Source: Escherichia coli (GTDB lineage Bacteria > Pseudomonadota > Gammaproteobacteria > Enterobacterales > Enterobacteriaceae). From it: a DNA stretch of 64,000 nt. The stretch lies in NCBI RefSeq assembly GCF_024298765.1, contig NZ_CP101210.1. The stretch is one strand, 5' to 3'. Below the pieces are notes generated by a model. The model had not been told where the DNA came from. It did no database searches and worked only from the letters and a program-made list of their open reading frames with translations. Each line of letters starts with the position of its first letter. Within the stretch, counting starts at the first letter, position 1. The position numbers were made by a program, and so were the translations under genes. Below, piece after piece: positions 301 to 36,917 of the stretch.

Positions 301-510
<210 letters not shown>

Positions 511-527
511 TTAGTACATGCAACTAT

Positions 528-591
528 TATCACCGCCAGAGGTAAAATAGTCAACACGCACGGTGTTAGATATTTATCCCTTGCGGTGATA
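528..591. promoter_or_regulatory. Right operator OR1 (528..544), OR2 (551..567), OR3 (575..591) with divergent pR and pRM
   Basis: Three 17-bp sites tatcaccgccagaggta, caacacgcacggtgtta, tatcccttgcggtgata between cro and cI. Confidence 0.88.
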
Positions 592-598
592 GATTTAA

Positions 599-1315
<717 letters not shown>

Positions 1316-1442: not shown

Positions 1443-2300
1443 ATGAAGAAAGCAGCAATTTTAATTGATGCGGGTTTTTTCATGCAGCGTGTTCATGCTA
1501 CGCATCGTAAACACTTCGCCGAGCATGAACTGACTGCGCAATGCATAATGAAAGTAATATGGTCAATGGTTCTTTCCCATCTTAATGGAAAACGTCAATC
1601 ACAAGAACGTAGGGAACCGCTTGAGCTTTATAGAATTTACTTCTATGACTGTCCACCACTCGACATTCAAACACGCCTTCCACTTCCTGAGCCTGGCAAT
1701 AAGACGCCTGGTCGCAAGAATTTCAAACTCGAAAAATCATATATTCTGAGAACGGAGCTGCATGAAGAGTTAAGAAAAACTCGAAAAACAGCCTTAAGAT
1801 TAGGGAATCTTGTTGATAATAAGCGATGGCAACTAACTACATTCTCCCTTGATGCTCTGATGAAAGGAACGAAAAAATGGGATGAACTGACAAATGATGA
1901 TTTTTACTATGACATCAAACAAAAACAAGTTGATATCAAGCTAGGGATGGATATCACGACTTTAGCTTATGAAAAACTTGTTGATGTAATTGTCCTTGTT
2001 GCTGGGGACTCAGACTTTGTGCCTGCCGCCAAACACGCCAGAATTAAAGGTATTGATTTTATTCTTGATCCACTAAGACAGAATGTTACCCCATCACTGT
2101 CAGAGCACATTGATGGAGTTCAGTCATACAGCTTGATATCAGGACTTGCCGATGCTTTACATGTTGAGCCAGACCCGGCACCTGACTGGTGGGAAGATCG
2201 AAAAAAAGGCAAGCCTAGGGGAAAAAACAATAGCGGTAAACGCAGGTATGGAAACACTCAAGCTGAGTCTGCAAAGAAACATCAAAGAAATAAACGATAA
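1443..2300 (+). CDS. NYN/LabA-like PIN-fold predicted nuclease with Lys/Arg-rich C-terminal tail; occupies the rexA-rexB position
   Basis: 285-aa ORF with ATG start; motifs AAILIDAGFF, VDIKLGMD and VLVAGDSDFVPAAKHARIKGIDFILD resemble NYN acidic motifs; does not match my recollection of RexA; AT-rich. Confidence 0.75.
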   Translation: MKKAAILIDAGFFMQRVHATHRKHFAEHELTAQCIMKVIWSMVLSHLNGKRQSQERREPLELYRIYFYDCPPLDIQTRLPLPEPGNKTPGRKNFKLEKSYILRTELHEELRKTRKTALRLGNLVDNKRWQLTTFSLDALMKGTKKWDELTNDDFYYDIKQKQVDIKLGMDITTLAYEKLVDVIVLVAGDSDFVPAAKHARIKGIDFILDPLRQNVTPSLSEHIDGVQSYSLISGLADALHVEPDPAPDWWEDRKKGKPRGKNNSGKRRYGNTQAESAKKHQRNKR

Positions 2301-2309
2301 TCCCATCAA

Positions 2310-2336
2310 CCCGGCCACCGAGCCGGGTTTTCTTTG
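2310..2336 (+). terminator. Rho-independent terminator after the NYN gene
   Basis: cccggc-caccga-gccggg hairpin followed by ttttctttg. Confidence 0.6.
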
Positions 2337-2491
2337 CCTCACGATCGCCCCACCTAAAAACACATAACCAATTGTATTTATTTTAAAATTAATAGGTGCA
2401 ACTCACTAAACAACGCAATTCTGATCTCTCGATCACCTCCCAAGCCACACAACCCTGCAAAAAATAAATCTATATAAAAAACATACAGATA

Positions 2492-2552
2492 ACCATCTGC
2501 GGTGATAAATTATCTCTGGCGGTGTTGACACAAATACCACTAGCGGTGATAC
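2492..2552 (+). promoter_or_regulatory. Left operator OL3 (2492..2508), OL2 (2511..2527), OL1 (2535..2551) with pL (-35 ttgaca 2525..2530, -10 gatact 2547..2552)
   Basis: aaccatctgcggtgata, tatctctggcggtgttg, taccactagcggtgata upstream of N. Confidence 0.88.
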
Positions 2553-2592
2553 TAAACACACCAGCAGGACGCACTAACCCACATGAAGGTGA

Positions 2593-2623
2593 TGCTCTTA
2601 AAAATTAAGCCCTGAAGAAGGGC
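2593..2623 (+). promoter_or_regulatory. nutL (boxA tgctcttaa, boxB gccctgaagaagggc)
   Basis: gatgctcttaaaaattaagccctgaagaagggc between pL and N. Confidence 0.8.
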
Positions 2624-2781
2624 AGCATTCAAAGCAGAAGGCTTTGGGGTGTGTGATACGAAACGAAACATTGGCCGGAAGTGCGAATCCGGATTAGCTG
2701 CAAATGAGCCAATCGTGGGGTGTTTTCGTTCAGGACTACGACTCCCACACACCACCAAAGCTAACTGACAAGAGAATCCAG

Positions 2782-3679
<898 letters not shown>

Positions 3680-34628: not shown

Positions 34629-35672
34629 TTATCCACGTAGTGTAGCCGCAAAATCCAGCATACGATTGAGCGGCACCAGCGCCCTCTCTCGCAGCCTTTC
34701 ATCAACATGAACCTCGTGATTGCTTCCTTCCTGTTCTAATGCCTCTGCGATGGCCTGAAGGCCATTCATGGCCATCCACGGACAATGCGCGCAGCTGCGG
34801 CAGGTTGCACCCTCACCCGCGGTTGGTGCTTCCAGTAACTCTTTATCTGGCACCGCCTGCTGCATTTTGTAGAAAATGCCCCGATCGGTTGCCACGATAA
34901 GCCGCTGATGTGGCAATGTTTTCGCAGCAGCGATCAGTTGACTGGTGGAACCGACCGCATCCGCCATATCGACAATAGCTTGTGGTGATTCTGGATGCAC
35001 CAGTATGGCAGCATCCGGGTATTCTTCTTGCAAGCGGGTTAACGCCTGAGTCTTAAATTCATCATGCACAATGCAGGCACCCTGCCAGCATAAAATGTCT
35101 GCGCCCGTCTGTTTTTGCACGTAACGCCCCAGATGTTTGTCGGGTGCCCAGATGATTTTTTCACCCAAACTATCCAGATGATCAATAAGTTCGACGGCAA
35201 TGCTTGAAGTTACCACCCAATCTGCGCGCGCTTTTACCGCAGCAGAAGTGTTGGCGTAGACGACGACAGTACGATCGGGATGGGCATCGCAAAATGCGTT
35301 AAATTCTTCAACAGGGCAGCCGAGATCCAGTGAACATTCAGCCTGAAGTGTCGGCATCAGAATTGTTTTTTCCGGACTGAGAATTTTGGCGGTTTCTCCC
35401 ATAAATCTCACCCCAGCGACTAATAACGTAGAAGCGGGATGCTTTGCACCGAAGCGCGCCATTTCCAGAGAATCAGAAATACAGCCACCGGTTTCTTCTG
35501 CCAGTTGTTGAATTTCGGGATCGGTATAGTAGTGGGCAACCATCACCGCATTACGTTCTTTTAGCAGACGTTTTATCTTCTCACGGTAATACGCTTTTTC
35601 ATCAATGCTTAACGGCGTCGGCTTCGGGGGGAAAGGATAAATCGCCGTGTCTGGATCAAACATCACGCTCAT
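34629..35672 (-). CDS. nadA: Quinolinate synthase
   Basis: 347-aa [66 protein letters not shown]. Confidence 0.96.
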
Positions 35673-35916
35673 CTTACCATCTCGTTTTACAGGCTTAACG
35701 TTAAAACCGACATGAGCGTAATATTCGCTGTTATCGGTGAAATTTGTTTTATATGCTAAACAAGATAGTCGAATGGTGGGGAAAAGTCACTCGAATTACG
35801 TATGAGATGCCGAATGCCACACTTTGCGTCTTATTCCTCCGACGTAGAGTTGTTTACGCAGCAAACGCGGAGTATGTCATCAGGGTCAAGAATTGAAATT
35901 GAGAGATGCCTGAATA

Positions 35917-35947
35917 GCAAAAAAGCGCCTTTAGGGCGCTTTTTTGC
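35917..35947. terminator. Bidirectional rho-independent terminator (end of lysT tRNA operon)
   Basis: A-run, aagcgcc..ggcgctt hairpin, T-run. Confidence 0.7.
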
Positions 35948-35949
35948 AT

Positions 35950-36025
35950 TGGTGGGTCGTGCAGGATTCGAACCTGCGACCAATTGATTAAAAGTCAACT
36001 GCTCTACCAACTGAGCTAACGACCC
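35950..36025 (-). tRNA. lysQ: tRNA-Lys (UUU)
   Basis: Reverse complement is GGGTCGTTAGCTCAGTTGGTAGAGCAGTTGACTTTTAATCAATTGGTCGCAGGTTCGAATCCTGCACGACCCACCA; symbol assigned by order. Confidence 0.93.
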
Positions 36026-36058
36026 CTTGCGGGATTATGCTGCTTTAATCATTCAGGA

Positions 36059-36134
36059 TGGTGGGTCGTGCAGGATTCGAACCTGCGACCAATTGATTAA
36101 AAGTCAACTGCTCTACCAACTGAGCTAACGACCC
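36059..36134 (-). tRNA. lysZ: tRNA-Lys (UUU)
   Basis: Identical 76-nt tRNA-Lys sequence; symbol by order. Confidence 0.93.
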
Positions 36135-36182
36135 ATACGGGTGTTACCTGAAAGATTTCTACTCGGAACCAATGTTTAAAAT

Positions 36183-36258
36183 TGGTGGGTCGTGCAGGAT
36201 TCGAACCTGCGACCAATTGATTAAAAGTCAACTGCTCTACCAACTGAGCTAACGACCC
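36183..36258 (-). tRNA. lysY: tRNA-Lys (UUU)
   Basis: Identical 76-nt tRNA-Lys sequence; symbol by order. Confidence 0.93.
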
Positions 36259-36261
36259 GAG

Positions 36262-36337
36262 TGGTGGGTGATGACGGGATCGAACCGCCGACCCCCTCCT
36301 TGTAAGGGAGGTGCTCTCCCAGCTGAGCTAATCACCC
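36262..36337 (-). tRNA. valZ: tRNA-Val (UAC)
   Basis: Reverse complement is GGGTGATTAGCTCAGCTGGGAGAGCACCTCCCTTACAAGGAGGGGGTCGGCGGTTCGATCCCGTCATCACCCACCA. Confidence 0.93.
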
Positions 36338-36388
36338 GATACTGCGCTGGATACTACAAACTACTTCCACCGAACCCACAGTAATTAG

Positions 36389-36464
36389 TGGTGGGTCGTG
36401 CAGGATTCGAACCTGCGACCAATTGATTAAAAGTCAACTGCTCTACCAACTGAGCTAACGACCC
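36389..36464 (-). tRNA. lysW: tRNA-Lys (UUU)
   Basis: Identical 76-nt tRNA-Lys sequence; symbol by order. Confidence 0.93.
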
Positions 36465-36466
36465 GG

Positions 36467-36542
36467 TGGTGGGTGATGACGGGATCGAACCGCCGACCCC
36501 CTCCTTGTAAGGGAGGTGCTCTCCCAGCTGAGCTAATCACCC
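36467..36542 (-). tRNA. valT: tRNA-Val (UAC)
   Basis: Identical 76-nt tRNA-Val sequence; symbol by order. Confidence 0.93.
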
Positions 36543-36577
36543 GATACTACGCTGGATACTACAACTAACTATGTTAG

Positions 36578-36595
36578 TGGTGGGTCGTGCAGGAT
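36578..36595 (-). pseudogene. Orphan 3' fragment of tRNA-Lys (last 18 nt ATCCTGCACGACCCACCA) in the lysT-valT spacer
   Basis: tggtgggtcgtgcaggat matches only the 3' end of the tRNA-Lys genes; upstream sequence is unrelated. Confidence 0.7.
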
Positions 36596-36677
36596 GACTC
36601 GACTTCGTCTCGCCCTTCGGGCCGTTGCTGACGCAACGTTATCCTTCACGTTTTACTACCGCGTCCACCTTAGCGAT

Positions 36678-36753
36678 TGGTGGGTCGTGCAGGATTCGAA
36701 CCTGCGACCAATTGATTAAAAGTCAACTGCTCTACCAACTGAGCTAACGACCC
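36678..36753 (-). tRNA. lysT: tRNA-Lys (UUU)
   Basis: Identical 76-nt tRNA-Lys sequence; first gene of the operon. Confidence 0.93.
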
Positions 36754-36917
36754 ACTTTTTCGTTGCTTTCGGTTTGTTTGATATCCCGTGGCAACGGCGG
36801 CATATATTACTGATTTCAGACTTGAGCGCAACAAAAATTTCGATGTAGATCACTCAACTGCTTATGATTCGCACGACACGACCAGAAATAATGCGACTTC
36901 TGGTCGTGTGTTATGCA

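Follow-up and report, generated by a model that had tools for sequence, protein, structure and literature searches.

A natural one-base variant of the lambda OL1 operator, common among Escherichia coli prophages, is probably near-neutral

INTRODUCTION

Does a single base that sets the OL1 operator of a prophage apart from that of bacteriophage lambda change the way in which its leftward promoter is repressed? The question is raised by a 64,000-nucleotide stretch of Escherichia coli DNA (RefSeq assembly GCF_024298765.1, contig NZ_CP101210.1), referred to here as the window, in which an initial annotation, made without database searches, had noted one departure from the lambda OL1 and had suggested that it could alter repression of pL. 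We consider it very probable that this departure is a near-neutral natural allele of OL1, located at the most tolerant inner position of the operator, which marks one lineage of lambda-immunity prophages and is linked to a T to C change at position -29 of pL.

METHODS

The window was aligned with the lambda reference sequence (NC_001416 / J02459); relative to the standard lambda map its plus strand runs as the reverse complement. Positions relative to pL are numbered from the -10 hexamer at 2548-2553, with +1 placed at window 2560 after the lambda pL transcript start; lambda 35581 aligns to window 2561, and window 2560 is hence equivalent to lambda 35582. Haplotypes of the pL spacer were counted in 5,426 complete E. 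coli genomes by means of 39-mers spanning both variable sites, such that each 28-base megablast seed must contain both. Wild loci were sampled from IMG/VR. A pattern fixing part of OL2 together with OL1 under-samples the IMG/VR variants, and an anchor upstream of OL3, blind to the operator sequence, was used instead, giving 93 loci. For binding energies the OR1 numbering of Moroni et al. (PMC2194778) was followed, in which TACCTCTGGCGGTGATA runs from T3 to A19 and G10 is base 8' of TACCTCTG.

RESULTS

OL1 and its setting

Window positions 2535-2551 read TACCACTAGCGGTGATA on the plus strand, whereas the lambda OL1 (35591-35607) reads TACCACTGGCGGTGATA. The alignment contains a single difference between the two, a G to A change at window 2542, equivalent to lambda 35600 (C to T on the lambda plus strand). 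The lambda OL1 given in the initial annotation was therefore correct, the reference base being G where the window has A, and its statement that OR1, OR2, OR3, OL2 and OL3 match lambda exactly was confirmed base for base. The 'scattered transitions' that it described in the pL/nutL leader are only part of the picture, since the 17 differences from lambda between the pL -10 hexamer and the start of N (2552-2781) comprise nine transitions and eight transversions.

The window resembles lambda at 16 of the 17 bases of OL1, in the placement of the site between the -35 and -10 hexamers of pL, overlapping the -10 hexamer as an imm-lambda OL requires, and in the spacing of the OL3-OL2-OL1 array (sites separated by 3 bp and 7 bp), which aligns with lambda colinearly and without gaps. 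The consensus half TATCACCGC of the 17-bp pseudo-symmetric site is intact. In the layout of the site, TACCACTA-G-CGGTGATA, the variant occupies the innermost base (8') of the non-consensus half-site, beside the central base pair. Besides this A, where lambda has G, the window has C for the T found at -29 of lambda pL, and the flanking leader is approximately 7% diverged. When the window was scanned with the lambda OL1 17-mer, allowing up to three mismatches, three sites were recovered (OL1, OR1 and OR3), against 0.12 expected by chance. The sequence features that characterize an imm-lambda OL/pL region are all present, namely the consensus half, an OL1 lying within pL, the tripartite array, and cognate CI and Cro together with OR1-3 (Table 1). 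Judged from these sequence features, the site is a genuine OL1 operator of a wild lambda-immunity prophage.

Table 1. Features of the immunity region in the window
Feature	Position	Strand	Comparison with lambda or basis
cro	301-501	-	0 of 201 nt different
OR1	528-544		identical
OR2	552-568		identical
OR3	575-591		identical
cI (237 aa)	602-1315	+	20 of 714 nt different; T3A, K71N, R129K, D139G
NYN-domain gene (285 aa)	1443-2300	+	replaces rexA and rexB; Pfam PF01936, E 6.8e-9
Timm-like intrinsic terminator	2308-2337 (also given as 2308-2329)	+	closes the cI operon; the conserved segment leading into OL3 follows
OL3	2491-2507		identical (alignment)
OL2	2511-2527		identical (alignment)
pL	2525-2553	+	homology to lambda pL; 10 of 12 consensus matches
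pL -35 hexamer TTGACA	2525-2530	+	followed by 17-nt spacer
pL spacer variant (-29)	2531	+	T to C (alignment); directly 3' of the -35 hexamer
pL -10 hexamer GATACT	2548-2553	+	
OL1, 17-bp CI/Cro operator	2535-2551		16 of 17 bases identical; alignment, same place between pL hexamers
OL1 non-consensus half	2535-2542		
OL1 variant base (8', pL -18)	2542		G to A relative to lambda 35600
OL1 central base pair	2543		
OL1 consensus half	2544-2551		
nutL	2593-2623	+	
nutL boxA	2593-2600	+	TGCTCTTA; lambda CGCTCTTA
nutL boxB	2609-2623	+	identical
N antiterminator	2782-3105	+	first gene under pL/OL control; Pfam N36, E 1.5e-26

By the same kind of comparison the phage itself is not lambda but a wild prophage with lambda immunity, integrated at att-lambda. 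Over window 2300-2900 its sequence equals that of phage ev099 (NC_049953) and of dozens of E. coli chromosomes, many of them from poultry, at 100% identity, the identity to lambda being only 92.1%. The prophage int gene abuts ybhC, the location of att-lambda, as seen on comparison with E. coli 214-4, and the host genes mod, gal, tol-pal and cyd are encountered from about 10.5 kb onward. Of the two regulators, Cro is identical to that of lambda, and the 237-residue CI has four substitutions, none of them within the helix-turn-helix (approximately residues 33-52). Where lambda has rexAB, the window has one gene for an NYN-domain protein, a predicted nuclease. A terminator equivalent to Timm is also annotated in records EF120455-61.

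Frequency of the two alleles

The combination found in the window, C at -29 with A at -18, occurs in 303 genomes and that of lambda, T at -29 with G at -18, in 229, while the two mixed combinations (C with G, and T with A) occur in five genomes each; the OL1 bearing A (OL1-A) is present in 27 of the 93 IMG/VR loci, and none of these frequencies is a population estimate, because both the E. coli and the IMG/VR collections are clonal and were not deduplicated. Two OL1 alleles are thus common in nature, and of these OL1-A is the commoner in this collection of E. coli genomes. Two sequenced phages, ev099 and mEp332, are identical to the window in both the OL1 17-mer and the spacer C. In the 'immunity region' record of mEp332 (EF120456) the site bears the annotation 'operator oL1', with Cro and CI given as the proteins that bind it; the record presumably belongs to the set of wild lambda-immunity phages of Degnan et al. 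(2007, Mol Microbiol).

A sequencing error or a laboratory mutation is effectively ruled out by the E. coli genome counts. More broadly, an operator-constitutive (virulence-type) mutation, an error or artefact, or any other recent lesion weakening OL1 seems to us a most improbable account: all that speaks for it is a difference from the reference inside an operator, and identical sequence is found in hundreds of independent complete genomes as well as in ev099 and mEp332, the allele residing in integrated prophages in the 303 complete genomes.

Energetic cost of the substitution

The N-terminal arm of CI contacts the central bases of the operator. In the crystal structure of CI bound to OL1 (1LMB) this arm can be seen on the consensus half but is not resolved on the non-consensus half. 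Experimental ΔΔG values for all single substitutions of OR1, determined by Sarai & Takeda (1989), are given in Tables 3 and 5 of Moroni et al. (PMC2194778), and OR1 differs from OL1 solely at position 5'. In these tables the substitution made in the window, G10-C32 to A-T at 8', costs +0.4 kcal/mol, a value obtained for OR1 and lambda CI by in vitro filter binding and equal to an approximately 2-fold change in Kd by the conversion used in that paper (0.546 ln ratio). The other two substitutions of G10 are listed at 0.2 and 0.5 kcal/mol, against 2.5-2.7 kcal/mol at C12, the mirror position 8 of the consensus half, and up to 3.7 kcal/mol at the most critical positions of OR1 (PMC2194778). The unequal cost of 8' and 8 in OR1 fits with an arm that is resolved on the consensus half only. 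Per-position data for CI were not found in PMC4653904, PMC2585596 or PMC3592454, nor binding energies for OL in PMC5880393, nor per-position data for Cro in the literature found.

Both the energies and the biology thus weigh further against a lesion, the cost of +0.4 kcal/mol in OR1 comparing with 2.5-3.7 kcal/mol at critical positions, and mEp332 retaining the immunity group of lambda. The classical v and vir mutations of lambda affect strongly contacted positions and permit growth on lysogens. Like them, the OL1 of the window carries a single-base change in a 17-bp operator, but unlike them it is changed at a position where substitution costs 0.2-0.5 kcal/mol (OR1 values), and it is carried by stable prophages. 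Neither the published OR1 energies nor the population data indicate the large loss of repressor affinity that distinguishes operator-constitutive mutations.

The same substitution in other operators

Operator variation in the wild loci is concentrated at 8'. Of the 93 IMG/VR loci, 17 have a G to A change at this base of OL2, in addition to the 27 changed at OL1, and of 64 loci 50 have it in OR1. The last base of OL3 is changed from A to G in 16 of 93 loci, and no further position of the OL operators varies in more than two of the 93. Among the E. coli genomes, 173 have G and 177 have A as the 8' base of OR1, an approximately even division, and the G to A change there is found in all but one of the seven immunity-region records EF120455-61 in GenBank. 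This OR1 variant, TACCTCTAGCGGTGATA, shares with the OL1 of the window the substitution, the half-site position and the CTAGCGG core, but it lies in OR1 and not in OL1, and the OR1 of the window retains the G of lambda. In mEp332 the G to A change is present at OL1, OL2 and OR1 together, with an additional C to T change in OL3; the window, in contrast, has the lambda sequence at OL2, OR1 and OL3.

In each of OL1, OL2 and OR1 the substitution creates the tetranucleotide CTAG.

Linkage and lineages

The two variable sites of the pL spacer lie 11 bp apart and are in nearly complete linkage, as the 303 and 229 genomes of parental type and the five and five recombinants indicate. Over so short a distance linkage is expected by descent, and co-selection would fit too; that all four combinations nevertheless exist implies that the mutations recur, though rarely, or that very short patches recombine. 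The OL1 allele also tracks the cI allele despite differing cargo genes between them, at cI-to-OL distances ranging from 1.3 to 2.3 kb: OL1-A is found with cI of the R129K/D139G type, as in the window, or of the I55V type, and OL1-G with cI carrying plain T3A,K71N. T3A (STKKK to SAKKK; window 608-610) and K71N (812-814) are present in nearly all of the wild lambda-immunity loci examined, which makes the CI of laboratory lambda the atypical allele.

One possible explanation of this linkage is adaptive tuning, in which A at -18, C at -29 and the cI allele of the lineage would have been selected together for a changed set-point of pL, whether through occupancy of OL1 by CI or Cro, through spacer-dependent strength of pL or through looping between OL and OR; wild lambda-immunity lineages would then differ in their lysis-lysogeny or induction thresholds. 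We think this unlikely. The strong linkage within the spacer and the co-variation of the OL1 and cI alleles across different cargo genes are in its favour, yet linkage over 11 bp is expected by descent alone and the energetic effect measured in OR1 is small. Exactly one G to A change among OL1, OL2 and OR1 is found in 44 of the 64 wild loci scorable at each of these sites, with none (the lambda state) in only six of the 64, and the OL1 and OR1 alleles are negatively associated among the IMG/VR loci (Fisher p=0.019), but these associations trace to three or four immunity-region lineages, and the counts are therefore not independent events. Moreover, mEp332 is changed at all three sites, contrary to any rule of one weakened site.

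A more elaborate version holds that the lineage-specific sets of cI allele, 8' pattern and pL spacer are co-adapted switch settings governing the tightness of repression and the induction threshold, and this we regard as rather improbable. The three cI types that it would treat as co-adapted are plain T3A/K71N, the same with R129K/D139G, and I55V with a block of changes in the C-terminal domain. Were it true, laboratory lambda would be atypical, with G at OL1, OL2 and OR1 and with Thr3 and Lys71 (precursor numbering).

Two further ideas were considered and rejected. That either OR1 or OL1 must be weakened is contradicted by mEp332, with its changes at OL1, OL2 and OR1, and the association is explained by the few lineages. 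That the T3A change in the CI arm compensates for the 8' change is contradicted by the presence of T3A and K71N in nearly all wild loci, whatever the OL1 allele.

The codons that mark the lineage of the window within cI are those of R129K (986-988) and D139G (1016-1018).

DISCUSSION

Our preferred explanation, which we hold to be very probable, remains that of a near-neutral allele, in which the G to A change at 2542 is inherited with the immunity-region lineage and is no mutation of lambda. CI would read position 8' only weakly, and by analogy with OR1 the intrinsic affinity of OL1 for CI would be approximately 2-fold lower; with CI bound cooperatively at OL1 and the unchanged OL2, repression of pL in the lysogen should nonetheless be essentially complete. 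At saturating CI the unrepressed fraction of pL would scale as 1/(K1·K2·coop·[CI2]²), from which we infer that a very small leak from pL would rise 2-fold at most and that the CI level at which pL becomes derepressed would shift approximately 1.4-fold.

The initial suggestion that repression of pL might be altered is sound in that the change sits within an operator of CI and Cro; as regards any appreciable effect, the location at 8', the least sensitive inner position, and the ΔΔG of +0.4 kcal/mol in OR1 point the other way, and on the analogy with OR1 the regulatory significance of the change would be weak. The behaviour of mEp332 is consistent with retained function, as this phage, which carries OL1-A together with the changes in OL2 and OR1, is reported to fall into the same immunity group as lambda and to persist stably as a prophage in MG1655 (PMC3442831).

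Several allele sets of these operators occur in nature, and that of textbook lambda is only one of them. Natural variation in these operators falls largely at positions where substitution costs about 0.4 kcal/mol or less, which amounts to a population-level confirmation of the 1989 substitution data. For the purposes of annotation, a one-base departure from the reference OL1 at 8' should not be counted as a regulatory lesion. OL1-A was already known, because the sequence has been public for years, and its recognition here matters little; should the lineage-specific combinations of operator and cI alleles prove to set different induction thresholds, they would be of some, if modest, interest with regard to how the lambda switch evolved.

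Other features of the region

The NYN-domain gene occupies the cargo slot that separates cI from the Timm terminator, and the copy in E. coli 214-4 is annotated as split or partial. The gene may serve the prophage in defence or exclusion. Different cargo is found in the same slot in other wild loci, for example hicAB in mEp234 and HK106.

In the cro-cI intergenic region the sole difference from lambda is at window 525, C to T on the plus strand. Read along pR this is a G to A change between the -10 hexamer and +1 (GATAATGGTTGC to GATAATAGTTGC), and the position is polymorphic in wild loci. On the left side, the first base of the nutL boxA (2593) is T here and C in lambda, and is C, T or G across wild loci; T is the base that matches the rrn-type boxA. 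At the place of sieB in lambda, directly after N, the window has an antisense ORF of 167 aa (3098-3601, minus strand), which has no Pfam match and has paired CxxC motifs close to its C-terminus.

Identity to E. coli 214-4 is approximately 97.6% in the host flank and 99.6-99.9% in the prophage part. Within the host flank, several BLAST matches to E. coli 214-4, offset from one another, are obtained for the tRNA-Lys/tRNA-Val array near nadA (window ~35,900-36,800), a pattern which suggests that the copy number of the repeat differs between the two genomes.
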